DNA of 59,092 nucleotides from Thermoplasmatota archaeon (GTDB taxonomy: Archaea > Thermoplasmatota > Thermoplasmata > UBA10834), in assembly GCA_016930135.1 (NCBI GenBank), contig JAFGHM010000102.1, positions 1 to 59,092 of the forward strand, in the 5' to 3' direction. Below are positions 33,801 through 51,537 of this stretch, one piece after another; within the stretch, counting starts at the first letter, position 1; every line of letters starts with the position of its first letter. The position numbers and the translations under genes were made by a program. The notes beneath the pieces are model-generated. The model was not told the origin of the DNA and made no database searches. It saw only the letters and a list, made by a program, of their open reading frames with translations.

Positions 33801-35099
33801 ATGACGAGCAAGGTCGTGGTGGTAGGAGGAGGGATCGCGGGCATCCAGGCTGCGCTCGACCTCGGAGATATGGGATACGAGGTGCACCTCGTCGAAAGGA
33901 CGCCCTCCATTGGAGGACGCATGGCCCAGCTGGACAAGACCTTCCCGACCAATGACTGCTCGTTGTGCATACTGTCGCCCAAGATGATTTCATGCGCCGG
34001 GCACGAGAACATCAAGCTACATACCTACTCTGAGATTGAGAGCGCCGATGGCGGGTTCCCCAAGACGAGGGTGAGGATCAGGGAGAAGGCTAGGTACGTG
34101 ATTCTCAGCAGGTGTACTGGGTGTGGAGACTGCATCGCCAAGTGTCCGGTCAAGGTAACATTCGAGTTCGAGGAAGGGCTCTCCAAGCGAAAGGCCGTCT
34201 ATCTGCCTTTCCCACAGGCGGTCCCGAGGAAGGTCACCATAGACGCTGAGCACTGCAGGATGATCACCGAGGGCAAGTGCGGTGTATGCAAGAAGGTGTG
34301 CCAGGCGGGGGCAATCGACTACGAGCAGAAGGACAGCTTCGTCGACTTGGAAGCTGGCGCGGTAGTCATCGCGACGGGGTTCGACCTGGCCGATGCCTCC
34401 GCGCTGCGGCAATACGGCCTTGGCACCTGCAAGGATGTGATCACCTCGCTCCAGCTCGAACGGATACTCTCTGCCGCAGGACCTACAGGCGGACGCCTCA
34501 CGAGGCCCTCGGACGACACGGAGCCTAAGAAGCTCGCGTTCGTGCAGTGCGTGGGCTCCAGAGATTCCAGGATGTTCAAGTACTGCAGCAGCGTGTGCTG
34601 CATGTACGCCACCAAGGAGTCCATCCTGGTACGCGAACACGTCCCGGACATCGAATCCACCATATTCTACATGGACATGAGGGCGACTGGGAAGGGGTTC
34701 CAGGAATTTGTGCTGCGCGCAGAGAGGTCATACGGTGTGAGATACATCCGCTCGAGACCAGCCGAGGTCCAGCCTGCCTCTGACGGAAGAGGTGTGCTGG
34801 TCACTTACGACACGGGAGGGGGGATTGGCGAACAGCGCACTGAGAAGTTCGACCTGCTCGTCCTGTGCCCTGCGCTGGTGCCGTCCAAGGGCACTTCTGA
34901 GATCGCGCGAATACTCGGCGTGGAACTTGACGAGAACGGATTCATAATGACCCCTGACACTAGGAACCCGATAGACTCGACGAAGAAAGGGGTTCTGGTC
35001 TGCGGATTCGCCGGGGAACCTATGGATATCCCGGATTCGGTAGCGCAGGCGACGGGGGTCGCGGCCAGAGTGGCGGAACTGCTCCAGGAGGCGCGCTGA
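33801..35099 (+). CDS. hdrA: HdrA-like flavoprotein, first half of a split tandem HdrA
   Basis: GGGIAG, GGRMAQLDKTFPTNDCSLC, inserted ferredoxin, QCVGSR...YCSSVCC; lacks the N-terminal RIGVF domain. Confidence 0.9.
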   Translation: MTSKVVVVGGGIAGIQAALDLGDMGYEVHLVERTPSIGGRMAQLDKTFPTNDCSLCILSPKMISCAGHENIKLHTYSEIESADGGFPKTRVRIREKARYVILSRCTGCGDCIAKCPVKVTFEFEEGLSKRKAVYLPFPQAVPRKVTIDAEHCRMITEGKCGVCKKVCQAGAIDYEQKDSFVDLEAGAVVIATGFDLADASALRQYGLGTCKDVITSLQLERILSAAGPTGGRLTRPSDDTEPKKLAFVQCVGSRDSRMFKYCSSVCCMYATKESILVREHVPDIESTIFYMDMRATGKGFQEFVLRAERSYGVRYIRSRPAEVQPASDGRGVLVTYDTGGGIGEQRTEKFDLLVLCPALVPSKGTSEIARILGVELDENGFIMTPDTRNPIDSTKKGVLVCGFAGEPMDIPDSVAQATGVAARVAELLQEAR

Positions 35100-35101
35100 C
35101 A

Positions 35102-36787
35102 ATGGCGAGGATAGGCGTCTTCATATGCCACTGCGGGCACAACATCGCATCGGCAGTGGCAGTCGAGGAGGTCGTGAAGTTCGCAAGGACCCTCCCCGAT
35201 GTGGTCTATTCCGACCACAACTTGTATTCGTGCTCCGAAGAGGGGCTTGGCTCCATTAAGAAGAGCATAGAGGAGAACAAGCTGGACAGGGTCGTGGTGG
35301 CAGCCTGCACCCCGAGGACCCACGAGCCCCTTTTCCGAAGGCTGTGCGAGCAGGCAGGGATCAACAAGTACCTGTTCGAGTTTGTCAACATCAGGGAGCA
35401 TTGCTCATGGATACATGCGAAGGAGCCAAACGCGGCCACGGAGAAGGCAAAGAAGCTCGTGGCGATGGGGGTGTCCAAAGCCGCCCTTCTCGAACCTCAA
35501 GTCGAGAGCGAGTCGGGCGTCATACCCACGGCGGTCGTGATCGGCGGCGGTCTGGCCGGGCTGACCGCGGCTGCATCGCTGGTCGCGCAGGACATAGACA
35601 CACATCTCATTGAGATGGAGGGCAAACTCGGGGGACAGCTGAACGATATCTCTATCCTTGCTCCGAACTTCGAAAAGAGCGCCGACCTGCTCAACAAGCT
35701 GGTTTCAGAGCTGAAGAAGTCCGAGAGGGGGCACATACACCTGGGGGCCAAGCTCGTCGATGTCAAAGGATTCGTCGGCAACTTCGAGATTACGGTCGAA
35801 GAGGAGGGTGTCCAGAACAAGATACCTGCGGGCGCAATCATACTCGCGACGGGGACACAAGAGCACCAGCCCGAGGGCGAATACGGCTTCCGGAAGGCTC
35901 CTGGTGTCGTGACCCAGCTGGAGTTCGAGAGGGCGCTCCAGAGAGGAGAAGTGCCGAAGCGCGTCGTCTTCATCCAATGCGTGGGCAGCAGGCAGCCGGG
36001 TAGGGAGTACTGTTCCAGGATATGCTGCAACACATCGCTGAAGAACGCTCTCAGAGTCGTCGAGGCCGGAGGCACTGCCGCGATAATCCACAGGGACATA
36101 ATGAGCTACGGGGCCGCATGGGAGGAGCTCTATCGACAGGCATCGGAGAGGGGAGTGGCCTTCTTCAGATACTCGCTCGAAGACAAGCCGAGGATCTCTG
36201 CAGAGAACAAGCACATCCTGGTCGAGGTCTTTGATGACAACCTGGGCGAAGGCGTGACCCTGCACACTGACCTTGTTGTCCTGGCCACGCCGCTGGTATC
36301 GAGGGATGATTCGGGTGATGTCAGCAGGATGCTCAAGGTACCAAGAGACAAGAATGGCTTCTACCTCGAGGCGCACGTGAAGCTCCGGCCAATCGAGTTC
36401 GCCACGGATGGCGTGTTCATATGCGGCTCTGCGAGATGGCCCAGCAGCGCGAGAGAGGTCATGTGCCAGGCCCTTGCGGCGGCAGCAAAGGCCGCAATCC
36501 CGATCAAGAGAGGTAAGGTCGTCACAGAGGCGATTACGGCCTGGTCTGACCCCGACAAATGCGCGGGGTGCGGCAACTGCGTCATCGCATGCCCATATGA
36601 GGCTATCGAGATAGTCGACCAGGACGGCAGGAAGATCGCGAAGGTCAACGAGACGCAGTGCAAGGGATGCGGGAACTGCGTGGCTGCGTGCCCTAACGAC
36701 GCGATGCAACAGAGGGGTTTCACGACCCGGCAGCTGAGCGCGATGATAGACGCGCTGGTGAAGCGCGCGCTGGAGGAGAGCTCATGA
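35102..36787 (+). CDS. hdrA: HdrA-like flavoprotein, second half
   Basis: RIGVFICHCG, AACTPRTHE, NIREHCSW, GGGLAG, QCVGSR...CSRICC, C-terminal 2x[4Fe-4S]. Confidence 0.9.
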   Translation: MARIGVFICHCGHNIASAVAVEEVVKFARTLPDVVYSDHNLYSCSEEGLGSIKKSIEENKLDRVVVAACTPRTHEPLFRRLCEQAGINKYLFEFVNIREHCSWIHAKEPNAATEKAKKLVAMGVSKAALLEPQVESESGVIPTAVVIGGGLAGLTAAASLVAQDIDTHLIEMEGKLGGQLNDISILAPNFEKSADLLNKLVSELKKSERGHIHLGAKLVDVKGFVGNFEITVEEEGVQNKIPAGAIILATGTQEHQPEGEYGFRKAPGVVTQLEFERALQRGEVPKRVVFIQCVGSRQPGREYCSRICCNTSLKNALRVVEAGGTAAIIHRDIMSYGAAWEELYRQASERGVAFFRYSLEDKPRISAENKHILVEVFDDNLGEGVTLHTDLVVLATPLVSRDDSGDVSRMLKVPRDKNGFYLEAHVKLRPIEFATDGVFICGSARWPSSAREVMCQALAAAAKAAIPIKRGKVVTEAITAWSDPDKCAGCGNCVIACPYEAIEIVDQDGRKIAKVNETQCKGCGNCVAACPNDAMQQRGFTTRQLSAMIDALVKRALEESS

Positions 36788-37203
36788 GCGACTTCAACCC
36801 GACAATCCTGGCATTCTGCTGCAACTGGTGTTCGTACGCGGGCGCAGACCTTGCGGGTGTGAGCAGGCTCCAGATGCCGCCCAACGTCCACGTCGTGCGG
36901 GTGATGTGCAGCGCGAGCGTGAAGGGGGAGTACATCCTCAAGGCGATCTCACAGGGCGTCGACGGTGTACTCGTGCTTGGCTGTCACATCGGGGACTGTC
37001 ACTACATGACGGGCAACCACAGGACCGCGAAGAGGATCCCGGTGGTCCAGAAGCTACTGAAGGACGTGGGCTTCGACGAGAGACGTGTAAGGCTGGACTG
37101 GGTCAGTGCTGCCGAGGGGGAGAAGTTCCAGAGGGTCATCACGGAGTTCGTCGAGGAGATCAAGGGCCTCGGCCCCAACCCGGTGAGAGAGGTGATGTCT
37201 TGA
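36784..37203 (+). CDS. mvhD: MvhD [2Fe-2S] subunit
   Basis: AFCCNWCSYAGAD, VMCS, GCHIGDCHY..GN. Confidence 0.93.
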   Translation: MSDFNPTILAFCCNWCSYAGADLAGVSRLQMPPNVHVVRVMCSASVKGEYILKAISQGVDGVLVLGCHIGDCHYMTGNHRTAKRIPVVQKLLKDVGFDERRVRLDWVSAAEGEKFQRVITEFVEEIKGLGPNPVREVMS

Positions 37204-37985
37204 GCGACCTAGGCAAGAAACTCGCCTCGATAGCCTTCGACGAGCTTGGGGCGGACTACCTGCTCGCGATGCGAGAGGAGCACGGGAACGTTGCCCCAGT
37301 GATGCTGGCCAGAGGACAGGACCCCGGCGAGATCAGACTCGACGTCCCATACCAGCTGGTGAACATACTCAGCAACATATATCCGTGGCTCAAGGACGGC
37401 AAGGTCGCAGTCGTCACGAGACGGTGTGACGAGAAGGCCCTTGAAGAGTTCTTTAAGCGGGAGCTGTTCGATCCGCGAAGGATTCTTAAGATCGGGCTTG
37501 CGTGTTCCAAGGAGCAGGTCGCCAAATGCAGGTGTTCGGACCCTGTACCGGCAAAGACGCACATAGGAGAGCCACAGAAGGCGATGGAGAAGGACGAACT
37601 ATCCGAGAAGCTGATGGCGATGCCTCCCGAGGAGAGGCTCAGATTCTGGGCATACCAGTTCAAGAAGTGCAACAAGTGTTTCGCGTGTACTCTCACCTGC
37701 CCCGTCTGCTTTTGCGACGAGTGCATACTCGAGGAGAAGACCTTTGTGCCCGAGCCAGGGATACCTCCGGGCATGTCCTTCCATCTGATACGCGCATATC
37801 ATCTGGCGGACAAGTGCATCGAGTGCGGTGAGTGCGAGCGCAGCTGCCCTGCTGAAATACCGCTCCTGACCCTGAGGAAGCTGCTGGCGAAGGATGTCAA
37901 GGAGATCTTCGGGTTCGCCCCCGGCGACAGGAAGACCGTGAGCCCACTCCTGACGGTGCTGGAGGAGGGATGCAATGAGTGTTGA
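37200..37985 (+). CDS. FdhB/FlxB-like 4Fe-4S protein (short)
   Basis: TTG start overlapping the mvhD stop; CNKCFACTLTCPVCFCDEC, FHLIRAYHLADKCIECGECERSCP. Confidence 0.8.
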   Translation: MSDLGKKLASIAFDELGADYLLAMREEHGNVAPVMLARGQDPGEIRLDVPYQLVNILSNIYPWLKDGKVAVVTRRCDEKALEEFFKRELFDPRRILKIGLACSKEQVAKCRCSDPVPAKTHIGEPQKAMEKDELSEKLMAMPPEERLRFWAYQFKKCNKCFACTLTCPVCFCDECILEEKTFVPEPGIPPGMSFHLIRAYHLADKCIECGECERSCPAEIPLLTLRKLLAKDVKEIFGFAPGDRKTVSPLLTVLEEGCNEC

Positions 37986-40011
37986 GCACGTGCTGACGAC
38001 ATGCCCTTACTGCGGCACCGGCTGCTACTTCTTCCTCCAAGTCGTGGACGGGAGGCTGGTGGGGGTCGTGCCGTGCAAGACGGATGAGATTTCGCTCGGA
38101 CGACTCTGCATCAAGGGCTACAACGCGCACGCGTTCGTCCAACATCCGGATCGGCTGAAGCATCCGATGATAAGGATCGACGGGGAGCTGAAACCTGTCT
38201 CATGGGACGATGCCCTCGGCAGGTTCGCGGAGGAACTCAGACGAATCAGGGAGAAGCACGGTCCGGACTCGATCGCGATCCTGGCATCGGCCAAGTGCAC
38301 GAACGAGGACAACTATCTCTTCCAGAAGCTCGCGAGGGCGGTGGTAGGTACAAACAATGTGGACCACTGCGCACGGCTCTGCCACGCGTCCACTGTCACA
38401 GGGCTCCTGTACTCGTTCGGCAGTGGCGCGATGACCAACACGGTACCTGAGTTCGAGAAAGCAGACTGTATTCTTGTGACGGGCTCCAACACGCTGGAGG
38501 CGCACCCTCTAATCGGCTCGAGGATACTCAGAGCCCTTGACAGAGGAGCGAAGGTCATTGTCATCGATCCAAGGGACACCCCTCTGTCGCGACTCGCAAC
38601 AATCAAGCTGAACCAGATATCCGGCACGGACATCGCCTGGATAAACGGGATGATCAAGCTGATCATAGACGAAGGCCTGTACGACGAGGACTTCGTGAAT
38701 GCGAGGACGGAGGCATTCGAGGAGCTGAAAGAAGCCGTCAAGGGCTACAACCTGGCGAAGGTGGAGTCCATCACCGGGATACCGGGTCAGATGCTCGCAG
38801 AGGCCGCGAGGGTCTATGCGAAATCGAAGAAGGCGATGGTAGCCTACGCGATGGGCGTGACTCAGCACAGCAACGGCACGGACCTGGTGAAGGCGCTCGC
38901 GAACCTGTCAATGGTCACGGGGCACATAGGCAAGGAGTCCACCGGCCTCAACCCGCTTAGGGGACAGTGCAATGTACAGGGTGCGTGCGATGCCGGCGGC
39001 CTGCCGAATCTGTTCCCTGGGTACCAGAGAGTTGACGACAAGTCTGCGAGGGCGAAGTTCGAGGCGGCGTGGGGTGTGCGATTGCCGGAAAAGCCCGGGC
39101 TCACCTTGACCTGCGCCATCGAGGAGGCGGCTGCCGGCAAGCTGAAGGCGATGGTGGTGTTCGGCGAGAACGTCATGCTCTCGGACCCGGATCTGAATCA
39201 CGTTGAGGAGGCGCTGAAGAAGCTGGAGCTGCTTGTGGTCGCCGACATATTCCCAACCGAGACGATCAAGTTCGCTCATATCGTGCTCCCGGCTGCATGC
39301 TACGCCGAGAAGGACGGGACGTTCACATCGACGGACAGGGCCATCAGGGTTCTCAGAAAGGCAGTGGACCCCCCGGGGGAGGCATTGCCGGACTGGCAGA
39401 TCGCATGCGATATCGGCAGGCGGCTGGGCTCGAAAGGGTTCGAGTTCTCTTCATCCGCTCAGATTATGGACGAGATGGCCTCCGTGACCCCAATCTATGC
39501 GGGGATAGACCACGCAAGGGCGGACAACACAGTGCTCCGGTGGCCCTGCCCCGCGAAGGACCATCCGGGGACGAGGATCCTGCACACCCAGAAGTTCACC
39601 AAGGGCCTTGGGACATTCGCGCCTGTCCATCACTCGCCTCCCGCGGAGGAAACCTCGGAGGACTACCCGCTGATTCTCACGACAGGTCGGAACCTGTTCC
39701 AGTACCATACGGGCACGATGACCAGGAGGTCTCCCAAGCTCGAGCGGGAGGCCCCGGAGCCCTATGCGGAGGTCAACAGGGCAGACGCGAAGAGGCTCGG
39801 CGTTTCGGACGGCGAGCGTGTCATGGTCTCCTCCCGGAGGGGGTCGATCGCTCTTAAGGCGCGGGTCACTGAGAGGATCATCCAGGGTTCGATATTCATA
39901 CCGTTCCACTACGCCGAGGCCGCCGCGAACAGACTCACGAACGCGGCCTTGGACCCCGACTCGAAGATACCCGAGTTCAAGGTGTGCGCTGTGAGGCTCG
40001 AGAAGGCCTGA
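37975..40011 (+). CDS. fdhA: formate dehydrogenase alpha subunit (Mo/W, Cys ligand)
   Basis: TCPYCGTGC, LC.KG, NNVDHCARLCH, PLRGQCNVQG, TGR...YHTGTMTRR, PEFKVCAV. Confidence 0.93.
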   Translation: MSVEHVLTTCPYCGTGCYFFLQVVDGRLVGVVPCKTDEISLGRLCIKGYNAHAFVQHPDRLKHPMIRIDGELKPVSWDDALGRFAEELRRIREKHGPDSIAILASAKCTNEDNYLFQKLARAVVGTNNVDHCARLCHASTVTGLLYSFGSGAMTNTVPEFEKADCILVTGSNTLEAHPLIGSRILRALDRGAKVIVIDPRDTPLSRLATIKLNQISGTDIAWINGMIKLIIDEGLYDEDFVNARTEAFEELKEAVKGYNLAKVESITGIPGQMLAEAARVYAKSKKAMVAYAMGVTQHSNGTDLVKALANLSMVTGHIGKESTGLNPLRGQCNVQGACDAGGLPNLFPGYQRVDDKSARAKFEAAWGVRLPEKPGLTLTCAIEEAAAGKLKAMVVFGENVMLSDPDLNHVEEALKKLELLVVADIFPTETIKFAHIVLPAACYAEKDGTFTSTDRAIRVLRKAVDPPGEALPDWQIACDIGRRLGSKGFEFSSSAQIMDEMASVTPIYAGIDHARADNTVLRWPCPAKDHPGTRILHTQKFTKGLGTFAPVHHSPPAEETSEDYPLILTTGRNLFQYHTGTMTRRSPKLEREAPEPYAEVNRADAKRLGVSDGERVMVSSRRGSIALKARVTERIIQGSIFIPFHYAEAAANRLTNAALDPDSKIPEFKVCAVRLEKA

Positions 40012-40056: not shown

Positions 40057-41379
40057 TCAGGTCCTGACTGGCGTGGCCAAGGGCTCGACTTCCACGTGCA
40101 CAGGTGGCCGGGTCGCCAATGCGACCCCGAAAGCGACCAACGAGGCGATCCCCACGGCCACGAAGACGTAGACGAATCCGGACTGAGACCCTGCTAGAAC
40201 GCCTGGTATCAACGCGCCCAGCGCTCCCGCGAGGCCATAGGATGTGAACACGTAGCCGTAGTTGTTGCCGAAGTTCTTGGTCCCGTAGTATTCCGATGTG
40301 GTGGACGGGAAGAGCGCGAAGTTGCCTCCAAAAGTGAAGCCGACGAGCGACGCCAAGCTGGTGAGGCCCACGAACTGCACTATCTCCCCCGTAGGTCTCA
40401 AGGCGAAGAACCCTGCAGCCCCGAAAAGGATAATGGCCTGAATCAGGAACATGAGCTTGAGTGTATTCGTCCTTCCGAGCTTGTCGGAGAGCTTGCCCCA
40501 GCCTATCCTGCCGGCCGCGTTGAACAGCGCGAGAATGCCAGCAATCGTCTGGAACTCTGCGACGACCATCGTCGTGCTAGTGGGATCGAGGAATATCGCA
40601 AGGTTCTTCACGTTGCTGATCATCATGAGCCCAGCCGTGCCGGAAAGGGCAAACATGACCCAGAGCATGAGGAAGCTCCTGGTCCTCATCATCTCCTTCT
40701 GCGTGTAATCGACCTTCCGACCGTTGTTCTTGTCGTTTGCAGATGGCACGTAGCCCTTAGGCAGCCAACCCGCAGGCGGGTTAGTCAGCAACTGCGCACC
40801 GACAACAACCATGGCCATGTAAATCAGGCCGAGGTAGACGCAGGCGTCCGCGAGGCCGTACGAGTCTATGAGGGCCTTTCCGACCTGAGTGAATATGAAC
40901 GCTCCAGCGCCGAACCCAGCGACTGCGATTCCGCTCACGAGACCCTTCTTGTCGGGAAACCACTTGACCCCAGCGGCGAGCGGGCAGACATATCCGAAGC
41001 CGAGACCGATGCCTCCGATGATGCCGAAGGTCGTGTACATCAGCACGATGTTCTCAGTAGCGAAGGTGGACAGCACATAGCCCGCGCCGAGGATGAGGCC
41101 GCCCATCGTGGCCACGACTCTCGGGCCCTTCCGGTCCTGTATCCTGCCCGCGAATATCACGGTGAAGGCGAAGACCGCTATGGCCGCAGCGAATATGCCA
41201 AGTATCTGGAACGATGCGGCATCGTAGCCCAACGACTTGGACAGCTCGCTCGTGAAGATTGAGAACGCGTACAGCGACCCCAGCGCAAGCTGGATCAGCA
41301 GCGCGCCAGCGACCACGATCCACCTATTCATGACTCTCTTTTCCCTTACTACCATCTTATCTGTTCTCCCAACTACCAT
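40057..41379 (-). CDS. OFA (oxalate/formate antiporter) family MFS transporter
   Basis: GSLYAFS, GRIQDRKGPR, KWFPDKKG, GRIGWGKLSDKLGR, YG.KNFG.NYG. Confidence 0.88.
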   Translation of the reverse strand: MVVGRTDKMVVREKRVMNRWIVVAGALLIQLALGSLYAFSIFTSELSKSLGYDAASFQILGIFAAAIAVFAFTVIFAGRIQDRKGPRVVATMGGLILGAGYVLSTFATENIVLMYTTFGIIGGIGLGFGYVCPLAAGVKWFPDKKGLVSGIAVAGFGAGAFIFTQVGKALIDSYGLADACVYLGLIYMAMVVVGAQLLTNPPAGWLPKGYVPSANDKNNGRKVDYTQKEMMRTRSFLMLWVMFALSGTAGLMMISNVKNLAIFLDPTSTTMVVAEFQTIAGILALFNAAGRIGWGKLSDKLGRTNTLKLMFLIQAIILFGAAGFFALRPTGEIVQFVGLTSLASLVGFTFGGNFALFPSTTSEYYGTKNFGNNYGYVFTSYGLAGALGALIPGVLAGSQSGFVYVFVAVGIASLVAFGVALATRPPVHVEVEPLATPVRT

Positions 41380-41472
41380 GCTCAAATTGACGGCCGAATA
41401 TCACCATTCTGAGGGACTCGATCTTGCTGGACCCGACAGCATTTCTGATAGTGCAGCTCCACTCCAGGAGCT

Positions 41473-43254: not shown

Positions 43255-43748
43255 GTCTGTTCTTGGAGAAACCAATCTGCGCACATGCCAGTACGGTTGC
43301 GAGAGGTTCACGGCAGCTGCTCAGTCCGATCTCTGTGGACGGCATTCTTGCTCTGGTTATAATGCTTTTCGATGGGACAACGCCGATTTGTGGCGTCGTC
43401 CGGATTCGAACTCTTCATATGCAGATTTCGCTGACGTCGACTTTCGACATGATACGGCATATATCGAACCACACTCGATGCCAGAAGCTCGCAAGAACCT
43501 GTGCGCCCGCTGTAGAATGCCCTGGCCCCGGCTCACCTCTTGCCTCCGGCGCCGAATACCATGGTGCCAACGCCTGCGGACAGCATAAGCCAGGCGGCCC
43601 GATGCTGAGTGAAGAAGTATAGCATGAAGACGACAACGCCCATGACCAAGAACCATGTATTCAGCGACGGAACCTACGGCTTGAGATTGCCATCCGTCTC
43701 AGTGAAGGCATCTATCTGGTCAGCACTCCCTCTCGTCTCTGTTTGCGC

Positions 43749-44639
43749 TCAATCCTTCCATCCGTGGTGCACCTTGGCCGCCTTGAGAGTATTCTGCATC
43801 AGCATCGTAATCGTCATCGGTCCAACGCCTCCAGGAACGGGGGTGATCGCCTTCGCCTTCACCTTCACCGCGTCGAAATCGACATCACCGACCAGCCTGG
43901 TCCCGCTCTTCGCCGAGGGGTCGCTTATCCTGTTGACTCCGACGTCGATTACGACGACGCCGTCCTTGACCATGTCCGCCTTGACGAACCCCGGGGAGCC
44001 GATTGCCGCTATTAGAATATCCGCCTGCCTGGTCATCTCGGCCAGATTCTTCGTCCTCGAGTGGCATATGGTGACCGTCGCGTCCGCCCCCTTGGCCTTC
44101 TGGATGAGTATGCAGGCCACCGGCTTACCGACTATGTTGCTCCTGCCCAGAACCACGACGTGCTTGCCCGAGGGATCGTTGCCGCTCCTGATAAGAAGCT
44201 CCTGGACACCGTGGGGTGTGCAGGGCAGATACGACTCGCTCCCGACCACCATCTTGCCGACGTTCACCGGATGGAACCCATCTACGTCCTTGCCCGGGTC
44301 GATCCTGAGGAGCACCTTCTCCTCACTGATGTGTTTCGGCAGAGGGAGCTGCACGAGGATGCCGTCGAACTTCGGATTCTTGTTGTAGTTGTCGATGAGC
44401 GCGAGCAGCTCGTTCTCAGTCGTGGACGCTGGGAGCCTGACCGTCTCCGAGCATATCCCCAAGTCGTTGCAGGCCTCACCCTTCTTCCTCACATATACCT
44501 GCGACGCGGGGTCCTCCCCGACTATGATGACCACAAGGCCAGGCTCTATGCCTGCCTTCTTCAGCTTCGAAACCTCGATCTTGATCTCTGCCCTGATGCT
44601 CTTAGCGACCTCGTTGCCGTTTATGACCTCAGCGACCAT
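43749..44639 (-). CDS. folD: methylene-THF dehydrogenase/cyclohydrolase
   Basis: YVRKK, GILVQLPLP, KDVDGFHP, PCTP.G, GRSNIVGKP, TPVPGGVGPMT; start at ATG 44639. Confidence 0.95.
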   Translation of the reverse strand: MVAEVINGNEVAKSIRAEIKIEVSKLKKAGIEPGLVVIIVGEDPASQVYVRKKGEACNDLGICSETVRLPASTTENELLALIDNYNKNPKFDGILVQLPLPKHISEEKVLLRIDPGKDVDGFHPVNVGKMVVGSESYLPCTPHGVQELLIRSGNDPSGKHVVVLGRSNIVGKPVACILIQKAKGADATVTICHSRTKNLAEMTRQADILIAAIGSPGFVKADMVKDGVVVIDVGVNRISDPSAKSGTRLVGDVDFDAVKVKAKAITPVPGGVGPMTITMLMQNTLKAAKVHHGWKD

Positions 44640-44855
44640 CCTAAACCCCCTAAGACCGGATGCGGACTCTTTACTTAACAGTTGCGCGCAGGCCGATGAC
44701 CAAGGGGATACCACTCGCCGGGTTCGACCATCTTTCGACCGCCCGAACGAGCATCCCTGGCATGGTAATGCCGAAGAGACGCGGCTGCTCTGGGAAAGCA
44801 TTTTCCGAAACGTTTTACTAGGTGCGCTGAATACCCTGCCAGAGGAGGATTCCGA

Positions 44856-46535
44856 ATGGCCATGAAGCCAGACATCGAGATTGCACAAGCTGCGAAGGTG
44901 CAGCACATTGAGAAGATTGCGGAGAAGATAGGCCTCTCGCGCGATGATCTTGAGTTCTATGGGAAATACAAGGCGAAGGTCCCGTTGGACGTCCTGAAGA
45001 GGTTCGACAAGAACAAGGACGGGAAGCTCATCTTCGTGACTGCAATAACTGCGACGAAGGCAGGTGAAGGGAAGACCGTCACCTCGATAGGACTCTGTCA
45101 GGGCTTGGGACAGCTCGGCAAAAAGGTCATGCTGTCTCTGAGAGAACCGTCGCTTGGCCCGACTTTCGGCATCAAAGGAGGAGCGACTGGCGGAGGATAC
45201 TCCCAGGTCTACCCGATGTGGGACATCGACCTCCACTTCACTGGCGACATTCATGCGGTTGGGACTGCCCACAACCTCCTGTCCGCGCTCGTCGAGAACC
45301 ACATAACCAAGAAGAACGAGCTCAACATCGACGCCACGAGGATCGTCCTCAGCAAGGTCATGGACATGAACGCGAGGGAGCTGAGGGACATAGTAGTAGG
45401 GCTTGGCGGAAGGGAGAAGGGCGGCGTGCCCCACGAGAGCAGATTCGACATCACCGTCGCCTCAGAGATTATGGCCATATTGGCTCTCTCGAAGGACATG
45501 GCGGACCTGAGGCAGAGGCTCTCGAGGGTCGTCGTAGCATATACGCGCGACAGAAAGCCGGTCACCGCTGACAAGCTCAAGGGCATAGGATCGATGTGTC
45601 TGCTCCTGAAGGACGCGATCATGCCCAACCTAGTCCAGACGCTCGAGGGACAGCCAGCATTGATACACGGAGCGCCCTTCGCGAACATCGCGCACGGGAA
45701 CAGCTCGATCATAGCCACGAAGTACGCGCTCAAGATGGCGGACTACGTAATCACTGAGGGTGGATTCGCTGCGGACTTGGGCGGAGAGAAGTTCTTCGAC
45801 ATCGTCTGCAGAGTCGCAGACCTCAAGCCTGATGTCACTGTCTTGGTTTCGAGCATCAGGGCGCTCAAGATGCACGGTGGAATGGACGAGAAAGACATCG
45901 GAACGCCGAACCTCGACTACCTGGAGAAAGGCTTCGCCAACCTCGACAAGCACATCGAGAACATGCGCAAGTTCGGAGTGCCGGTGGTCGTGGCGCTCAA
46001 CAGGTTCCCGACGGACAGCCAGGAGGAACTCGAGCTGTGCAAGAAGCACTGCGACAAGATGGGCGTGCGCTCTGCGCACTCCACAGTATTCGCCGAGGGC
46101 GGAAAGGGAGGCGTCGAACTCGCAAAGACCGTGCTCGAATGCATGGAGAAGGAGAAATCCAATTTCCATGTGCTGTACGATGAGAAGCTCCCGATCAAGA
46201 AGAAGATCGAGATCATCGCAAAGGAAATTTACGGTGCGGAGGGAGTGGTGTACACCGGAACCGCTCCTACGGATATAGCGAACATCGAGAAAGCCAGGAA
46301 CGACAAGCTCCCGATATGCATGGCCAAGACGCAGTTGTCGTTGACGGACGACCCGAAGAAGAAGGGCGCTCCGAAGGACTGGTCGCTGACTGTGAGAGAG
46401 GTCAGGCTGTCTGCGGGTGCGGGGTTCATCGTTCCCCTCACTGGCGAGCTGATGACCATACCAGGCCTGCCCACCGTCCCGGTAGCCGAGAAGATCAACA
46501 TCGACGACAAGGGCTACATAACGGGCCTTAACTGA
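44856..46535 (+). CDS. fhs: formate--tetrahydrofolate ligase
   Basis: GEGKT, REPSLGP.FGIKGGA.GGGYSQV, HFTGD, PFANIAHG, CMAKTQ.S. Confidence 0.96.
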   Translation: MAMKPDIEIAQAAKVQHIEKIAEKIGLSRDDLEFYGKYKAKVPLDVLKRFDKNKDGKLIFVTAITATKAGEGKTVTSIGLCQGLGQLGKKVMLSLREPSLGPTFGIKGGATGGGYSQVYPMWDIDLHFTGDIHAVGTAHNLLSALVENHITKKNELNIDATRIVLSKVMDMNARELRDIVVGLGGREKGGVPHESRFDITVASEIMAILALSKDMADLRQRLSRVVVAYTRDRKPVTADKLKGIGSMCLLLKDAIMPNLVQTLEGQPALIHGAPFANIAHGNSSIIATKYALKMADYVITEGGFAADLGGEKFFDIVCRVADLKPDVTVLVSSIRALKMHGGMDEKDIGTPNLDYLEKGFANLDKHIENMRKFGVPVVVALNRFPTDSQEELELCKKHCDKMGVRSAHSTVFAEGGKGGVELAKTVLECMEKEKSNFHVLYDEKLPIKKKIEIIAKEIYGAEGVVYTGTAPTDIANIEKARNDKLPICMAKTQLSLTDDPKKKGAPKDWSLTVREVRLSAGAGFIVPLTGELMTIPGLPTVPVAEKINIDDKGYITGLN

Positions 46536-46693
46536 GTCCGGCGGCGTACTTCAGGCAGAATGGCCGGCTCCGAAACCTTTCATTCGATTCGGAACGGGGG
46601 TGCTTTTTATCCCCCTCATGCGTTCCGATTACTAGCTCCTGCCCCTGTTTGATGGGTATGATGGAGGGGCTTACAGTAAGCGGGAGGGTCCTG

Positions 46694-47932
46694 ATGACGC
46701 AAGTCCTGGTGATTGGAGGAGGTCCAGCAGGTCTCACGGCCGCGAAGTCTCTAGTGGACAGCGGCGCGGAAGTAGTTCTGGTCGAGAAGAGCGACTCGCT
46801 CGGGGGGATGGCGAGGAATTGGACCTGCAAAGGCCTGGTCGAATGCAGAAACTGCGGCGTCTGCTTCGCGGTTGATCAGGCGGAAGGAATACTCAGGGAA
46901 CCGTCAGCAGAGATCCTGCTGCTGTCTGAAGTGGCATCCGCACATAGGACCGAAGATGGGTTCTCATTCAAAATCAAGACCTCTCCCAGATATGTCACCG
47001 ATGATTGCATAGGCTGTGGCAAGTGCGTGGCCGTGTGCCCTGTCGAGGGCAAGGCGATATTCCCTCCGACAGGCACCGGCCGGCCCCAACAATACTGGAT
47101 CGACCGCATAAAGTGCTTGCATTTCAAGAAACGCAAGTGCAACGCGTGCGCCGAGGTCTGCCCGACAAAGGCCATCGACTACGACGACAGGGCAAAGAGC
47201 ATTTCGAGAAAGGTTCAGTCCGTGGTTCTGGCAACTGGCATTGATGCGATAGAGGCGTGCGAAACCAACAGATTCGGCTGCGGCAGGTATGCCAATGTCA
47301 TCTCGAGCGTGGACGCAGAGAAGATACTGAACGAGAAGGGACGGCTGCTGAGGCCTTCAGACGGCAGACCCCCGAAGAAGATAGCGGTGGTACAGTGTGT
47401 CGGCTCGAGGTCTGTGGAGTTCGGCGTGGAATACTGTTCGAAGTTCTGCTGCAAGTACGCGACCAAGATCTGCCAGCTGTTGCTCGATATCGATGCCGAA
47501 ATCAACCTTGACTTCTACTTCATGGACCTGCGGACGCTGTATGAGCCCCAGGACGAGTTCAAGCTCTGGGCGAAGGCGAAGAAAACCGTCAGACTCGTAA
47601 GATCGATGCCCGCGGACATCTACGAGAAGGACGATTCCAAAAACCTCCTCGTACGGGTCGCCGGGGAGACCGATTCGGATATCTCTGAGACCGAGTACGA
47701 CCTCGTCATCCTCTCGGTGGGCATGAGACCTTCAGGTGCTTCGTCCGAGCTGGCCCGGTCCCTCGGAGTGGGCACCGACGAGATGGGGTTCGCCATGGTC
47801 TCGAAAGAGATCGAAGCCAGTGGGGTCTACGTCTGTGGTGCGGTAACGCAACCGATGGACATCGAGGAGGCTGCTGTCAGAGCGGTGGCGACCGTTTCTC
47901 GGATGAACAAGAAAAAGGAGGCGGGACCGTGA
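46694..47932 (+). CDS. HdrA-like flavoprotein, first half (divergent)
   Basis: GGGPAG, GGMARNWTCKGLVECRNCGVC, ferredoxin insert, QCVGSR...CSKFCC. Confidence 0.85.
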   Translation: MTQVLVIGGGPAGLTAAKSLVDSGAEVVLVEKSDSLGGMARNWTCKGLVECRNCGVCFAVDQAEGILREPSAEILLLSEVASAHRTEDGFSFKIKTSPRYVTDDCIGCGKCVAVCPVEGKAIFPPTGTGRPQQYWIDRIKCLHFKKRKCNACAEVCPTKAIDYDDRAKSISRKVQSVVLATGIDAIEACETNRFGCGRYANVISSVDAEKILNEKGRLLRPSDGRPPKKIAVVQCVGSRSVEFGVEYCSKFCCKYATKICQLLLDIDAEINLDFYFMDLRTLYEPQDEFKLWAKAKKTVRLVRSMPADIYEKDDSKNLLVRVAGETDSDISETEYDLVILSVGMRPSGASSELARSLGVGTDEMGFAMVSKEIEASGVYVCGAVTQPMDIEEAAVRAVATVSRMNKKKEAGP

Positions 47933-49506
47933 AGGCGAAGATACAGGTCGTTTTGTGCAAGTGCTGCACCGAAATCCCCTCTGTCCTCAGGCTCGAATCC
48001 CTCTCCAAGCTGGCATCCGAGAGCAACAATGTGATGTCCGTCATGACCGTGGATGCCATCTGCGACGGGAAGCAGCTCGCACCTGTCATGAACGACGTGA
48101 AGCAGAAGGAGCTTGACAGAGCGGTCGTGCTGGCATGCCACAAGAAGGATGTGAGCCCGACCCTTCTGAGAGCATATAGGCGCGCGGGCGTGAACGAGTT
48201 CATGGTCGAGCTCGTCAACATCCGCGAAGAGGTGGTTCTTCCACACGCGAACGAGCCCGAGAGAGCGCAGGCGAAGGCAGAGGCGAAGCTGAGAGCCGCG
48301 CTGGCGAGGTCGCTCATGCTCCAGCCGCTCGAACGGCAGACAGAGGAGATGAAGACAAGGAACGTCGTCATAATAGGCGCTGGAGTTGCCGGCCAGGCAG
48401 CCGCAAAGGAGGCTGCCAAGGCAGGCGCTCACACTGTCGTCCTTGAGAAGTCCGGGAAGACCCTCAAGGTGCCCGGGGTCGTGATGCAGCACTCGACGCT
48501 CGTCGGCGCTGAGGGATATGGAGGCAATCTCAAGCTCAAGATCAGGGCCGGCGAGAAGGTTGAGTCCCTTGACGCTGCCGCCTTGGTCATCGCCACCGGA
48601 GGAGGATGGACCCAACTGAAGGGATCTCTGGCGAAGGCCGTCAAGGACGCCGTTCCTCTATACAAGCTGAACGAGCAGGTCCAGGTCGACGCGCCCATCA
48701 AGGGACCCGTCGTCGTGGTCGACTCCCCGGATCCGTCAGGAAAGACGATGGCTGTCCAAGACTTCGCATGGGACGAGACCCTAGAGACCGTCGTCGAGCT
48801 GAAGAAGAAGCATCCGGAGACAGAGATATGGGTCGTCTTCCAGGAGATGAGGGCCTTCGGCTTGTCGGAGCTGGTGTACAAGGAGGCCGCTGACGCCGGT
48901 ATCAAGTTCATCAGATATGACAAGGGAGGAGTGCCAAAGGCCGACCCGAAGAACCCAGGCGTGCTCTCTGTGAGGGATTTCTCGCAGGGCGAGCAGCTCA
49001 ACATCAGATTCGGCACGCTCGCTTTCGCATCGATTCCGGCAAACCCCGACAATAGACTGATAGCTGAGGTGCTCAGGATTCCGATGGCGGCAGACGGAGG
49101 AATCAGGAGAGGCAGCATACAGAGATGGCCTGTCTCCACTCCAAGACCTGGTGTGTTCGTGTGCGGCTCCGCCCTGTTCCCGAAGTCGAGAGAGGCTGCA
49201 GAGGCTGAGGGAGAGGCTGCGGGAGCGATGGCCAGCGCTTTCGTGAAGCGCGGCACGATTGAGTTCGGTGGCGTCGTGGCCGAGGTGGAACAAGAGAAGT
49301 GCTCGGCGTGTCTGACCTGCGTGCGCACATGTCCTTACGAGGCCCCATTCATAGGAGCGGCAGGCAAGGCGGAGATACGGATCCAGGCATGTCAGGGGTG
49401 CGGGATGTGCGTCGGCATCTGCCCAAGCAAGGCCATCGAGCTGAGGAACTACACCGACGACCAAATCATGATAGAGACGCGGACTCTGCTCGGAGGTGAT
49501 TTCTGA
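47929..49506 (+). CDS. HdrA-like protein, second half (degenerate)
   Basis: VVLCKCC, ELVNIREE, GAGVAG, C-terminal CSACLTCVRTCP and CQGCGMCVGICP; central CVGSR/CS..CC motif absent. Confidence 0.85.
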   Translation: MKAKIQVVLCKCCTEIPSVLRLESLSKLASESNNVMSVMTVDAICDGKQLAPVMNDVKQKELDRAVVLACHKKDVSPTLLRAYRRAGVNEFMVELVNIREEVVLPHANEPERAQAKAEAKLRAALARSLMLQPLERQTEEMKTRNVVIIGAGVAGQAAAKEAAKAGAHTVVLEKSGKTLKVPGVVMQHSTLVGAEGYGGNLKLKIRAGEKVESLDAAALVIATGGGWTQLKGSLAKAVKDAVPLYKLNEQVQVDAPIKGPVVVVDSPDPSGKTMAVQDFAWDETLETVVELKKKHPETEIWVVFQEMRAFGLSELVYKEAADAGIKFIRYDKGGVPKADPKNPGVLSVRDFSQGEQLNIRFGTLAFASIPANPDNRLIAEVLRIPMAADGGIRRGSIQRWPVSTPRPGVFVCGSALFPKSREAAEAEGEAAGAMASAFVKRGTIEFGGVVAEVEQEKCSACLTCVRTCPYEAPFIGAAGKAEIRIQACQGCGMCVGICPSKAIELRNYTDDQIMIETRTLLGGDF

Positions 49507-49922
49507 TGGCCGAGAGGAGGCCGAAGATAATAGGCTTCTGCTGTGAGAGGCATGGCATGGACTCAGCCGTCCTCGCAGCGAGGACGGGGAAGCAGTTCGA
49601 TGCGAGTGTGAGGCTGGTCCAGGTGCCCTGCGCCGGCCGGGTGGATGGCATCCATATACTCCAGGCGCTTGAGGACGGGGCAGACGCCGTATTCGTGCTT
49701 GGCTGCCTTGAGAAGAACTGCTACTATGACACCGGCTCAATCGAAGCGCGGAAGCGGGTGGAGTACGTCAGGCAGATGCTCGCGGAAATGGGGATCGAGA
49801 AGGAGCGGGTCGAGATGTTCAACGCCGCCTCGACGAACGCGTGGGCGTTCCCCGAAATAGTCGCGAAGATGGTCGAGGTCGCGAAGAAGCTCGGCCCCAT
49901 CGAGGAGGGTGAGAGAAGATGA
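49506..49922 (+). CDS. mvhD: MvhD [2Fe-2S] subunit, second copy
   Basis: GFCCE, VPCAGRV, GADAV...GC...CYY..G. Confidence 0.88.
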   Translation: MAERRPKIIGFCCERHGMDSAVLAARTGKQFDASVRLVQVPCAGRVDGIHILQALEDGADAVFVLGCLEKNCYYDTGSIEARKRVEYVRQMLAEMGIEKERVEMFNAASTNAWAFPEIVAKMVEVAKKLGPIEEGERR

Positions 49923-50623
49923 TTGTCGCCAAGAGAAAGCCGCTCGGCGAGATAGTGGAGATGCTCGCACCCTACCAGAAGATCACAGTCATCGGATGCA
50001 GGAGCTGCGTGGCCATCTGCCTTGCGGGGGGAGAGAAGGAGGTCAAGATGCTGGTCTCCGCCCTGAAGATCAAGAATAGGAAGGAGGGCAGGAAGCAGCA
50101 GATCGATGGGTTCGTCGTTGAGAGGCAGTGTGAGAAGGAGTGGGTCAAGGAGGTCGAGGAGAGGATCCTCGATTCCGATGTCACGCTCTCGATGGCCTGC
50201 TCTCTGGGCGCTCAGACCATCGGCGACATGTACCCGAAGCACCTCACGTTTCCAGGGCTCAACACCGGCATGTTCGGCGTCCCAGAAGAACAGGGTGTGT
50301 GGTCGGAGAAGTGCATCGGATGCGGCAACTGCATCATACACACAACGGGGGGCATATGCCCGATTGCCAGATGCGCCAAGAGCATGTTGAACGGCCCATG
50401 CGGCGGGTCTGCGAACGGGAAGTGCGAAGTGAACCTCGAGGTCGACTGCGCTTGGGTGGCGATCTATGACCGGCTCAAGCTGCAGAACAGGCTGGATCTC
50501 ATCGAGAATTTCACTCCGGCAAAGGACTGGTCGACCAGTCACTCAGGTGGGCGGAGGATCTATGTCCGCGAGGATGCGAAGCTCTCTCAGCACCAGAAGA
50601 AGGGCAAGGAGGCGGTGCAATGA
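49919..50623 (+). CDS. metV: methylene-THF reductase Fe-S subunit MetV
   Basis: GCRSCVAIC..GG, RQC, C.GCG.C, CP...CAKS.LNGPCGG...CEV...CAW. Confidence 0.9.
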   Translation: MIVAKRKPLGEIVEMLAPYQKITVIGCRSCVAICLAGGEKEVKMLVSALKIKNRKEGRKQQIDGFVVERQCEKEWVKEVEERILDSDVTLSMACSLGAQTIGDMYPKHLTFPGLNTGMFGVPEEQGVWSEKCIGCGNCIIHTTGGICPIARCAKSMLNGPCGGSANGKCEVNLEVDCAWVAIYDRLKLQNRLDLIENFTPAKDWSTSHSGGRRIYVREDAKLSQHQKKGKEAVQ

Positions 50624-51537
50624 AGGCGGGCAGCAACCTCGAGAAGGTCTTGGAGTCGGGCAAGTTCGCTGTGACCGCTGAGATAGGTCCGCCGCAGTCT
50701 GCTAACCCCGAGCCCCTGACACATCACGCACGAATGCTCAAGGGGTACGCGGATGCGTTCAACCTGACGGACAATCAGACGGCGGTCGTCAGGTTGTCGA
50801 GCATCGCCAGTGCCGTAATCATAATGCGCGAGGGGATTGAGCCCGTCATCCAGATGACCTGCAGGGACAGGAACAGGATCGGGCTCCAGAGCGACCTGTT
50901 CGGCGCGGCCGCACTCGGAGTGAAGAACGTCCTCTGTCTCACGGGGGACCACCACATATTCGGGAACGAGAAGGCTGCGAAGGGCGTCTTCGATTTCGAC
51001 TCAATCGTCGAACTCAAGGTCTTCGACGACTTGAGGAACAGCGGGAAGCAGCTCGGAGGAGAACAGATCAAGGACCCGCCGAAGACCTACCTCGGATGTG
51101 CGGAGAACCCCTTTGCCACTCCCTATGAATGGAGGGCCGCGAGGCTCGCGAAGAAGGCCGCTGCCGGAGCGGACTTCTGCCAGACCCAGGCCATATTCGA
51201 CATGAAGATGTTCGAGAGATGGATGGACGAGATAAGGGGGCGTGGGTTGGACAAGAAGGTCCACATACTCGCCGGCGTGATCCCCGTGAAATCTGCAGGA
51301 TCCGCCAGGTACATGAAGAACAAGGTCCCGGGCATGATCGTGCCGAAAGAGATAGTGGACCGGATGAAGAATGCCAAGGACGCCAAGGAGGAAGGCATAC
51401 GGCTCTGCGTCGAGCAAATCGAGACTCTGAAGAGCATCAAGGGCGTCCACGGAGTGCACATCATGGCCGTGGCGTGGGAGGAAATGATTCCCAGGATCGT
51501 CAAAGAGGCAGGGCTCTTGCCCAGGCCGACGTTCTGA
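50620..51537 (+). CDS. metF: methylene-THF reductase catalytic subunit
   Basis: TAEIGPP, NLTDNQ, QMTCRDRNR, LCLTGDH, AGADF.QTQ. Confidence 0.93.
   Translation: MKAGSNLEKVLESGKFAVTAEIGPPQSANPEPLTHHARMLKGYADAFNLTDNQTAVVRLSSIASAVIIMREGIEPVIQMTCRDRNRIGLQSDLFGAAALGVKNVLCLTGDHHIFGNEKAAKGVFDFDSIVELKVFDDLRNSGKQLGGEQIKDPPKTYLGCAENPFATPYEWRAARLAKKAAAGADFCQTQAIFDMKMFERWMDEIRGRGLDKKVHILAGVIPVKSAGSARYMKNKVPGMIVPKEIVDRMKNAKDAKEEGIRLCVEQIETLKSIKGVHGVHIMAVAWEEMIPRIVKEAGLLPRPTF

Follow-up and report, generated by a model that had tools for sequence, protein, structure and literature searches.

Methylene-tetrahydrofolate (methylene-THF) reductases of the Hdr type have been described from genomes or by partial biochemistry (PMC9430772, PMC6085437). 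The fourth type of this enzyme, MetFV-HdrCBA-MvhD of Moorella thermoacetica and Sporomusa ovata, joins the catalytic subunit MetF and the small subunit MetV to heterodisulfide reductase (Hdr) proteins and MvhD. Its second electron partner remains unidentified in both organisms, and isolated MetVF of S. ovata made methyl-THF only when ferredoxin was present (PMC9430772). Here we describe a locus in a Thermoplasmatota archaeon of the order UBA10834 (assembly GCA_016930135.1, contig JAFGHM010000102.1) in which a formate dehydrogenase (Fdh) and a MetVF reductase are each encoded together with two HdrA paralogues and an MvhD protein. The window is the whole stretch of DNA that was analysed, 59,092 nt.

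Related assemblies are known from several lineages. Methanogens possess Fdh-MvhD-HdrABC complexes, with solved structures of Fdh-Hdr-Fmd from Methanospirillum hungatei (7BKB) and of Elp-Hdr (8RVU). Tandem or fused HdrA genes occur with FdhAB-like genes in anaerobic methanotrophic (ANME) archaea and in Methanolobus, and MetFV-HdrA-MvhD clusters in Ca. Syntrophoarchaeum (PMC9012536). In such a pair one of the copies carries the N-terminal domain and the other the Cys197 ligand, and obligate heterodimers, departing from the two-fold symmetry that the methanogen enzyme shows, were proposed for this complementarity; the HdrA of the Moorella MetFV-HdrABC-MvhD enzyme is a pair of this kind, a and b, fused in one protein (PMC9012536). 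HdrBCA-MvhD-FdhBA clusters were reported from single-cell genomes of deep-sea Chloroflexi and from Desulfobacula toluolica (PMC5736913). The order UBA10834 itself has been described as Ca. Gimiplasmatales, including the genus COMBO-56-21, with a THF-based Wood-Ljungdahl pathway (PMC11264602).

Genes in the window were called from a listing of open reading frames (ORFs), Pfam and NCBIfam. Two co-directional five-gene sets were found, a1-b1-mvhD1-fdhB'-fdhA (operon 1) and a2-b2-mvhD2-metV-metF (operon 2), where a and b denote HdrA paralogues and fdhB' a shortened fdhB (Table 1). Between the sets lie a divergent minus-strand trio, MFS (major facilitator superfamily transporter)-acs-folD, and then fhs. 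Genes inside either set are separated by 2 nt or overlap by 1–11 nt, the layout of a translationally coupled operon; the mvhD2/metV and metV/metF junctions overlap by 4 nt each and all three genes are co-directional. The gene order and identities given in a preliminary description of this DNA were borne out, as was its reading of the locus as a tetrahydrofolate methyl branch, with Fdh, Fhs, FolD and MetVF all encoded and both non-pyridine redox steps joined to their own HdrA-HdrA-MvhD gene sets. On balance we lean towards the view that the two operons encode separate, independent bifurcating or confurcating complexes, each linking one one-carbon (C1) redox step to ferredoxin and to a third partner from outside the operon.

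Asymmetric HdrA pairs and their proposed catalytic heads

The two HdrA proteins of each operon were compared with a solved HdrA (5ODC_A). a1 aligned to residues 143–563 (457 bits), which span the flavin adenine dinucleotide (FAD)/thioredoxin-reductase fold and the inserted ferredoxin domain, and b1 aligned to residues 5–234 and 319–650. a1 contains the FAD fold, both Cys of the Cys194/Cys197 motif, an inserted 2x[4Fe-4S] ferredoxin domain and the four Cys of HA4, the four-Cys cluster beside FAD, and lacks the N-terminal domain as well as a C-terminal ferredoxin domain. b1 joins the FAD fold and the HA4 Cys to the N-terminal cluster domain and a C-terminal 2x[4Fe-4S] domain, and lacks the Cys194/197 motif and the inserted ferredoxin domain. 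The domain set of a2 equals that of a1, to which it is 35% identical; b2, 25% identical to b1, has an N-terminal domain, a Rossmann/FAD motif and a C-terminal 2x[4Fe-4S] domain. In an alignment of every HdrA-type protein of the genome the Cys194/197 motif was present in a1 and a2 and absent from b1 and b2. Both pairs therefore show the asymmetric tandem pattern described in PMC9012536, by domains and by Cys complement. All four proteins keep a dinucleotide-binding motif, and each has its own Rossmann/FAD fold, so that they are not the 'split HdrA' of the preliminary description: the idea that they are halves of one split gene was rejected in favour of two paralogues with complementary domains. 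Three ports are conserved in both modules, namely MvhD, the inserted ferredoxin domain and HA4, which is kept in a1, b1 and a2 and so is found only on a2 in module 2.

In b2 all four HA4 Cys and one of the five N-domain Cys are replaced, and the family representatives, at least 64% identical, show the same replacements in 120 of 120 cases. Eleven other Cys, the eight of the C-terminal ferredoxin domain and three of the N-domain, persist in 119–120 of these 120 sequences, and one further N-domain Cys persists in 116. On the partner protein, the 16 cluster Cys of a2, including the eight of the inserted ferredoxin domain and the four of HA4, are kept in all four orthologues examined from other genomes. 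Since the losses from b2 are uniform, and its other cluster Cys and those of a2 are retained, they indicate a conserved design rather than decay. At the Cys194/197 site, where canonical HdrA has two Cys, a2 has four (C60, C66, C69 and C72), again kept in 4/4 orthologues; these may form a changed or additional cluster site, making up for the Cys that the b2 N-domain has lost. Module 2 is the more derived of the two. Its MvhD is 34% identical to MvhD1.

The fourth gene of operon 1 encodes a protein with 14 invariant Cys, in which Pfam found weak Fer4 matches and no FrhB_FdhB match. A profile of 22 family members searched against the PDB matched the FdhB chains 7bkb_E and 9t1s_M over nearly the full length (E 8.6e-49), with two large gaps relative to methanogen FdhB, approximately 110 middle residues being missing. 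Its structure model (pLDDT, the predicted local distance difference test score, 85.9) gave VIA Z scores of 19.8 to 8rvu_E (Elp-Hdr) and 19.2 to 7bkb_E (Fdh-Hdr-Fmd) over 242–249 aligned residues, and Foldseek matched the FdhB chains at E 3e-11. These profile and fold matches together indicate that the gene, called 'fdhB-like' in the preliminary description, encodes an FdhB, although not one of full length. With these residues missing, binding of flavin or coenzyme F420 by the shortened protein is doubtful. The closest PDB chains to FdhA are 9t1s_L, 7qv7_S and 7bkb_D (654 bits to 7bkb_D). FdhA has Cys at the position of the catalytic selenocysteine (Sec) or Cys: its ARLCHAS aligns with ARLXHSA of 9t1s_L, where X is a non-standard residue. 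No twin-arginine motif was seen by eye in its first residues, to which no signal-peptide tool was applied.

Operon 2 has the gene content of an Hdr-type methylene-THF reductase in two respects: metV and metF are adjacent and co-directional with mvhD2, and the two thioredoxin-reductase/FAD modules are present, as the two genes a2 and b2 rather than as a fusion. The hdrB/hdrC component was not found, Pfam detecting no CCG-domain gene in 44856–54957; the nearest such gene is that of an HdrD-like protein at 27512–28669. Relatives of MetV are numerous (1666 clusters of the representative library at E up to 0.001), and none was found by sequence among solved structures. Its structure model (pLDDT 88.7) gave no Foldseek match in the PDB at E up to 0.001, and the VIA-wide comparison reached at best Z 9.8, to generic alpha/beta binding-protein folds. 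In these fold searches MetV resembled neither FdhB nor HdrC, a result that does not exclude a relationship to them.

Operon 2 shares with the Moorella and Sporomusa enzymes the order of its end, mvhD-metV-metF, two FAD modules and the complementary loss of N-domain and Cys197 (PMC9430772). It differs in that the FAD modules are separate genes, in the absence of hdrB/hdrC and of a GltD/NAD(P)H domain from the operon, and in the lack of the HA4 cluster in b2; a2 moreover keeps the inserted ferredoxin-docking domain that is reported missing from the C-terminal part of the bacterial HdrA (PMC9430772). Operon 1 resembles methanogen Fdh-MvhD-HdrABC in its same-family FdhA, FdhB-type subunit, MvhD and HdrA. 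It departs from it in the shortened FdhB, in an a/b pair where the methanogen has a full-length HdrA homodimer, and in having neither HdrBC in the operon nor Fmd attached.

Tandem HdrA proteins of ANME archaea (HdrA5/6, 12/13 and 3/4) show the same alternation of an N-domain copy without Cys197 and another copy with it, their clusters include MvhD and FdhAB-like genes, and a symmetry-breaking heterodimer was proposed for them (PMC9012536). With these and the archaeal MetFV-HdrA-MvhD clusters in print, the preliminary description overstated the case in calling the present locus unusual because its host is an archaeon. The ANME systems belong to another lineage and use tetrahydromethanopterin, not THF, as C1 carrier; their clusters often include HdrBC or HdrD, and their FdhA-like proteins are reported to be very distant from characterised enzymes (PMC9012536), whereas FdhA here scores above the equivalog cut-off. 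The clusters of Chloroflexi and D. toluolica share the mvhD-fdhB'-fdhA core, with fused hdrBC and Sec-type FdhA in place of the tandem a/b genes, absence of hdrBC from the operon and Cys-type FdhA seen here (PMC5736913).

The described genomes of COMBO-56-21 are those of non-methanogenic Thermoplasmata and encode Fhs, FolD, a methylene-THF reductase, acsA-E, HdrA-D and MvhAGD (PMC11264602). b2 is 69% identical to a protein of the metagenome-assembled genome RBG_19FT_COMBO_56_21, and the present organism probably belongs with this group. The available part of PMC11264602 assigns Hdr and Mvh to 'recycle CoM' (coenzyme M) and does not report HdrA-MvhD genes in operons with MetVF and Fdh. The literature found contained no account of both C1 enzymes being wired in operons to HdrBC-less a/b-MvhD sets in this order, nor of the shortened FdhB, the cluster-less b2 or an Fdh cassette that is accessory; this negative does not extend to the founding paper on Gimiplasmatales or to one review of HdrA modules, which may bear on these points.

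Distribution of the two operons

The two modules were followed through 49 genomes of the order, belonging to six genera and two families. MetV was found in 45 genomes and the FdhB-like marker in 33, counting for the latter only strong matches with E up to 1e-40; relaxing the limit to 0.001 gave 36 genomes, three of them through weak partial matches. Thirty genomes contained both genes and 15 MetV only, while FdhB-like alone was found in three (75–86% complete) and neither in one (55% complete). Both genes were on one contig in 21 genomes, and in 18 of these they were 12.3–13.2 kb apart. In one relative, G008, approximately 13 kb is inserted between fdhA and the MFS gene, placing the modules 27 kb apart.

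Five of the 15 genomes with MetV only, all well assembled (98, 96, 93, 89 and 87% complete, one of them closed), were searched with FdhA and had no orthologue of it either, the best match being a paralogue of 27–31% identity, and all five kept an Mvh-type hydrogenase at 85–87% identity. The Fdh-less locus was examined in three genomes, G021, G015 and G044. Exactly a1-b1-mvhD1-fdhB'-fdhA was missing, between a Tpt1-like gene and the MFS gene, and synteny was otherwise maintained from an upstream HdrD-like gene to metF (in G021 on to purH). With the Fdh cassette cleanly absent and MetVF kept, it appears that the MetVF module works without the Fdh module. Within the order the MetVF operon is a core gene set and the Fdh operon an accessory cassette, one that many bacteria have as well. 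The MFS protein is 65–88% identical to the window copy in Fdh-containing relatives and 48–54% in the three Fdh-less loci; a distinct MFS variant seems to accompany the cassette and is possibly a formate carrier.

A scan of species-representative genomes yielded 405 relatives of FdhB-like, and the best 80 of these 405 loci were fetched with flanks of at most 10 kb. Four were from Thermoplasmata and kept the full window order as far as the flank extended, their MetVF genes lying beyond it. The other 76 were bacterial, from Anaerolineae, Dehalococcoidia, Thermodesulfobacteriota (including Syntrophales, Desulfobulbaceae and Desulfomonile) and others, and an archaeal-specific Fdh module was rejected on this count. 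The closest relatives outside Thermoplasmata were Chloroflexota, at 42–43% identity. Among 300 other genomes of the phylum, four had full-length FdhB-like matches (37–39% identity) and 19 partial C-terminal ones; none of the 'same class' genomes listed in that sample had a match.

MvhD was directly upstream of FdhB-like in all 62 of the 80 loci with at least 4.5 kb of upstream sequence. HdrA genes of both types were present in 42 of these 62 loci, a only in 12, b only in two and neither in six. A long CCG gene was found within the fetched stretch in 23 of the 42 loci with a and b and in none of the remaining 19. MetVF was absent within 10 kb of the Fdh cassette from 74 of the 76 bacterial loci; in the other two, from a Desulfocapsaceae (L066) and a Desulfobulbaceae (L085) genome, the cassette adjoins metF-metV-mvhD-hdrA(a-b fused) on the other strand. 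At the Cys197 position, 37 of 85 a-type matches of related loci had Cys and 48 an in-frame TGA, which is probably read as selenocysteine in many bacterial versions; every a-type copy from Thermoplasmata had Cys.

A tree of a-type HdrA was built from 30 rows, with partial sequences and b-type proteins left out; its deep forks are unresolved. The five Thermoplasmata Fdh-linked sequences formed a clade (100/100) whose nearest rows by path were Chloroflexota, and lateral exchange with bacteria is likely. a2 and its G021 orthologue shared a very long branch (2.48) and were sisters of neither a1 nor the bacterial MetVF-linked copies. A recent twin duplication of the modules was rejected, because the subunits are 25–35% identical and a1 and a2 are not sisters.

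Proposed electron paths and a possible third partner

The genome (1.83 Mb in 125 contigs, 85% complete) encodes further Hdr-type proteins. An HdrD-like protein, with an HdrC-type ferredoxin domain and two CCG domains, is encoded inside the window, 5.1 kb upstream of a1 with six genes on mixed strands between. Its best NCBIfam match is TfrB (244 bits, under the cut-off of 385). The gene is kept upstream in all four Thermoplasmata loci (L016–L019) and in all three Fdh-less loci (L096, L098 and L099). It stands in a row with genes for a B12-binding radical SAM protein of the Ta0216 family (TIGR04190, 651 bits) and MobB, and this trio is found upstream of the C1 locus in relatives both with and without the Fdh cassette. 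The preliminary statement that no HdrB/C lies next to either module thus holds for the operons and not for the window. Twelve ORFs of the genome match the HdrD-like protein (CCG type), and there are seven MvhD domains. One other HdrA set has an HdrA of canonical length with an HdrCB-like protein; an MvhD-HdrC-HdrB fusion occurs on contig C24, behind a fused a-b HdrA (1010 aa), and on C98, together with an HdrA, while C44 carries an HdrA-MvhD fusion. A third tandem a/b pair, on C63 (L010:3557–9512), is preceded by DsrE-like and MvhD genes and followed by a gene for one protein that has both a ferredoxin domain and a NarI-like membrane domain. In the closed relative G021 an array (C1:1335000–1354900) runs HdrA, HdrCB, MvhD, fused HdrA(a-b), MvhD-HdrCB, fused HdrA(a-b), MvhD, fused HdrA(a-b), MvhD and then an Mvh-type hydrogenase. 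Its order suggests that contigs C24 and C25 of the present genome are probably neighbours and that the a/b-MvhD unit is reiterated.

If the two modules are independent complexes, each operon would supply an asymmetric HdrA a/b heterodimer, MvhD as [2Fe-2S] adaptor and a catalytic head, consisting of shortened FdhB with Cys-type FdhA in operon 1 and of MetV with MetF in operon 2. The dimer would combine the N-domain cluster of b with the Cys197-type ligand of a, with the ferredoxin-docking domain on a and the MvhD-receiving domain on b. As the accessory domains are divided between a and b, one complete electron path would result, compared with two in the methanogen HdrA homodimer. By homology with the solved Fdh-Hdr complex, formate electrons would pass from FdhA through the FdhB-type clusters and MvhD1 to the C-terminal ferredoxin domain of b1 and on to the flavin. 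One branch would reach ferredoxin by way of the N-domain cluster and then the inserted domain of a1, and the high-potential branch would leave through HA4 to an acceptor not encoded in the operon. Candidates for the third partner in module 2 would be a CCG protein and an electron donor, Mvh hydrogenase for example. Both C1 steps, CO2/formate and methylene-/methyl-THF, would in this way be tied to a ferredoxin pool shared with CO dehydrogenase/acetyl-CoA synthase (CODH/ACS) and a complex-I-like enzyme lacking NuoEFG. Flux might run towards acetogenesis or formate assimilation, or towards acetate oxidation with formate export; the latter would suit the neighbouring Acs and monocarboxylate transporter.

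Several observations weigh against this scheme. Bifurcation is proposed here by analogy, and the gene for a third partner is in neither operon. A look for RNA runs covering 41538–51537 yielded none. Since the MetV fold was unlike FdhB and HdrC, the parallel between the two heads is drawn from gene order; MetV may dock on MvhD2, as gene order suggests, or at HA4 of a2 in the position of HdrC. The degenerate b2 is compatible with a simpler, non-bifurcating role. Given some ten further CCG proteins and the conserved HdrD-like gene, a candidate third partner outside both operons, the modules may be free of HdrBC at operon level only.

The preliminary description had suggested that the two modules may form one complex or a coupled pair. 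In an obligatory pair, formate oxidised at FdhA would be bifurcated to ferredoxin and, by the second module, to methylene-THF, or the reverse in acetate oxidation. The thermodynamics are sensible on established potentials and the contents complementary, with a mid-potential donor head and a high-potential acceptor head that each lack the other's type of partner; the spacing kept in 18 of 21 genomes and the two bacterial loci with both gene sets (L066 and L085) point the same way. The coupling is nevertheless unsupported by the distribution. MetV occurs without FdhB-like in 15 of 49 genomes, including the closed genome that is 98% complete, the cassette is cleanly gone from 3/3 Fdh-less loci examined, and MetV/MetF lay in the fetched stretch for only two of the best 80 of 405 loci. 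Each module also has its own HdrA pair and MvhD, mutually 25–35% identical. We consider one complex or an obligatory pair very unlikely. At the other extreme, HdrA(ab)-MvhD could be a mere electron wire, without bifurcation, through which FdhA and MetVF become enzymes dependent on ferredoxin. Ferredoxin and the CO2/formate couple have roughly the same potential, which favours a wire; reduction of methylene-THF by ferredoxin alone would waste approximately 250 mV, which speaks against it. The behaviour of isolated S. ovata MetVF (PMC9430772) and the loss of HA4 from b2 in 120/120 relatives would both fit a wire. It accounts poorly for the dinucleotide-binding motif in all four HdrA proteins, the HA4 of a1, b1 and a2 and the three distinct conserved ports, and three extra subunits are a high cost; we regard it as distinctly unlikely.

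A more serious contender, though still an unlikely one, is ordinary HdrABC logic, in which a CCG protein of HdrB/C or HdrD type, encoded at another locus, would join each HdrA pair, and a disulfide would be reduced as the high-potential acceptor. In the solved enzyme the HA4 Cys form the exit to HdrC, and a1, b1 and a2 retain them; the HdrD-like gene is upstream in every Thermoplasmata and Fdh-less locus examined, with 12 CCG-type ORFs in the genome; 23 of the 42 a+b loci have a long CCG gene in the stretch fetched; and HdrBCA-MvhD-FdhBA clusters exist in Chloroflexi and D. toluolica (PMC5736913). Set against this, the HdrD-like gene is kept in loci that lack the Fdh cassette as in those that have it and is separated from a1 by six mixed-strand genes, the other MvhD-HdrCB/CCG genes examined sit beside HdrA genes of their own, and for 19 of the 42 loci the fetched stretch contained no CCG gene. 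There is no evident disulfide substrate, and the published genomes of the group are described as lacking methyl-coenzyme M reductase (PMC11264602). The preliminary description had named canonical HdrBC elsewhere as a possible explanation of both modules: such genes do exist in the genome and may or may not serve the two modules. We retain two independent complexes as the working scheme. In a more speculative variant, which we hold to be quite improbable, the HdrA(a/b)-MvhD triad would be a self-sufficient, HdrBC-independent bifurcation cassette placed on every redox head of this lineage (Fdh, MetVF, Mvh hydrogenase and a membrane FeS/NarI-like protein) and pairing in trans. Formate or H2 would then supply electrons that a donor cassette (Fdh or Mvh), working with MetVF as the acceptor cassette, divides between methylene-THF and ferredoxin.

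Genomic context and implications

The carbonyl branch of the pathway is encoded elsewhere in the genome. No CODH/ACS lies within the window, as first described, and a complete bacterial-type set was found on contig C40, with CooC, a fused CooS-AcsB, AcsD, AcsC, a second CooC, RACo, a Pterin_bind methyltransferase and DUF3786. The window genes and C40 together make the bacterial-type (THF) Wood-Ljungdahl gene set complete at genome level. The fused protein (1378 aa, L012:6552–10688) joins CODH and acetyl-CoA synthase as Prismane, CODH_A_N, CdhC and ACS_CODH_B_C domains. The genome also encodes two [NiFe] hydrogenase large subunits, one of Mvh/Vhu type and one of sulfhydrogenase type, and glycine-cleavage P proteins.

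Within the window the headless complex I noted previously was found as described. Its NuoI homologue is long (303 aa), with extra 4Fe-4S ferredoxin domains, and next to the operon are genes for a polyprenyl synthase, a UbiE-like methyltransferase and a geranylgeranyl-reductase-like protein. More one-carbon and purine genes flank the C1 locus. Coordinates are given in Table 1, in which the FolD start is the first Met ahead of the domain.

Table 1. Genes of the C1 locus and other features of the window
Feature	Position	Strand	Length and evidence
Serine hydroxymethyltransferase-like gene	6769–7983	+	
Polyprenyl synthase, UbiE-like methyltransferase, geranylgeranyl-reductase-like gene	10619–13412		
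Complex-I-like operon nuoABCDHIJKLMN, lacking nuoEFG	13498–23909	-	
B12-binding radical SAM protein, MobB, HdrD-like protein	24881–28669	+	
HdrD-like protein	27512–28669	+	PF02754 E 1.4e-40
HdrA paralogue a1	33801–35099	+	432 aa; NCBIfam HdrA2 profile positions 139–562
HdrA paralogue b1	35102–36787	+	561 aa; NCBIfam and 5ODC_A match
MvhD1, [2Fe-2S] adaptor	36784–37203	+	139 aa; PF02662 E 1.4e-53
Shortened FdhB-type iron-sulfur subunit	37200–37985	+	261 aa; TTG start overlaps mvhD1 stop
FdhA, Mo/W-bis-PGD (pyranopterin guanine dinucleotide) catalytic subunit, cytoplasmic	37975–40011	+	678 aa; TIGR01591 836 bits, cut-off 666
MFS monocarboxylate transporter (oxalate/formate-lactate family)	40057–41385	-	NF049980 386 bits, cut-off 320
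AMP-forming acetate-CoA ligase (Acs)	41473–43311	-	NF003313 843.5 bits, cut-off 729
FolD, methylene-THF dehydrogenase/cyclohydrolase	~43749–44639	-	PF00763 and PF02882
Fhs, formate-tetrahydrofolate ligase	44856–46535	+	PF01268 E 1e-257; NF010030 831 bits, cut-off 652
HdrA paralogue a2	46649–47932	+	427 aa; Pfam, NCBIfam, alignment
HdrA paralogue b2	47929–49506	+	525 aa; Pfam, NCBIfam, alignment
MvhD2	49506–49922	+	138 aa; PF02662 E 9.9e-37
MetV, small iron-sulfur subunit of MetVF-type methylene-THF reductase	49919–50623	+	PF12225 E 9.2e-36
MetF, methylene-THF reductase catalytic subunit	50620–51537	+	PF02219 E 2.8e-40
DUF885 protein, PurH	51605–54957	+	

For organisms that have the Hdr-type enzyme, the coupling of methylene-THF reduction to energy conservation is still unsolved. 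The present order offers stripped-down, five-subunit versions of the machinery, in which a and b are genes of their own, the operon contains no HdrBC and one HdrA copy has demonstrably lost a cluster. It also offers a natural comparison between sister genomes that have the Fdh cassette and others that lack it. Together these features make the question of the partner directly testable. If pairing in trans were true, it would identify the second partner that has long been sought for methylene-THF reductases of the Hdr type, and would give an energy-conserving methyl branch without NADH.

The design is found in many bacteria and is partly in print, so that the present locus counts as a useful variation and not as machinery of a new kind. 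Its interest is moderate, as a minimal model, modular by nature, of C1 enzymes linked to Hdr. That hdrA-hdrA-mvhD-fdhB'-fdhA is widespread among bacteria suggests one family of cytoplasmic formate dehydrogenases that, judging by the literature found, is uncharacterised. For these abundant sediment archaea the reading of the Hdr genes is corrected: at least two HdrA-MvhD sets belong to C1/tetrahydrofolate enzymes and not to the recycling of coenzymes M and B.

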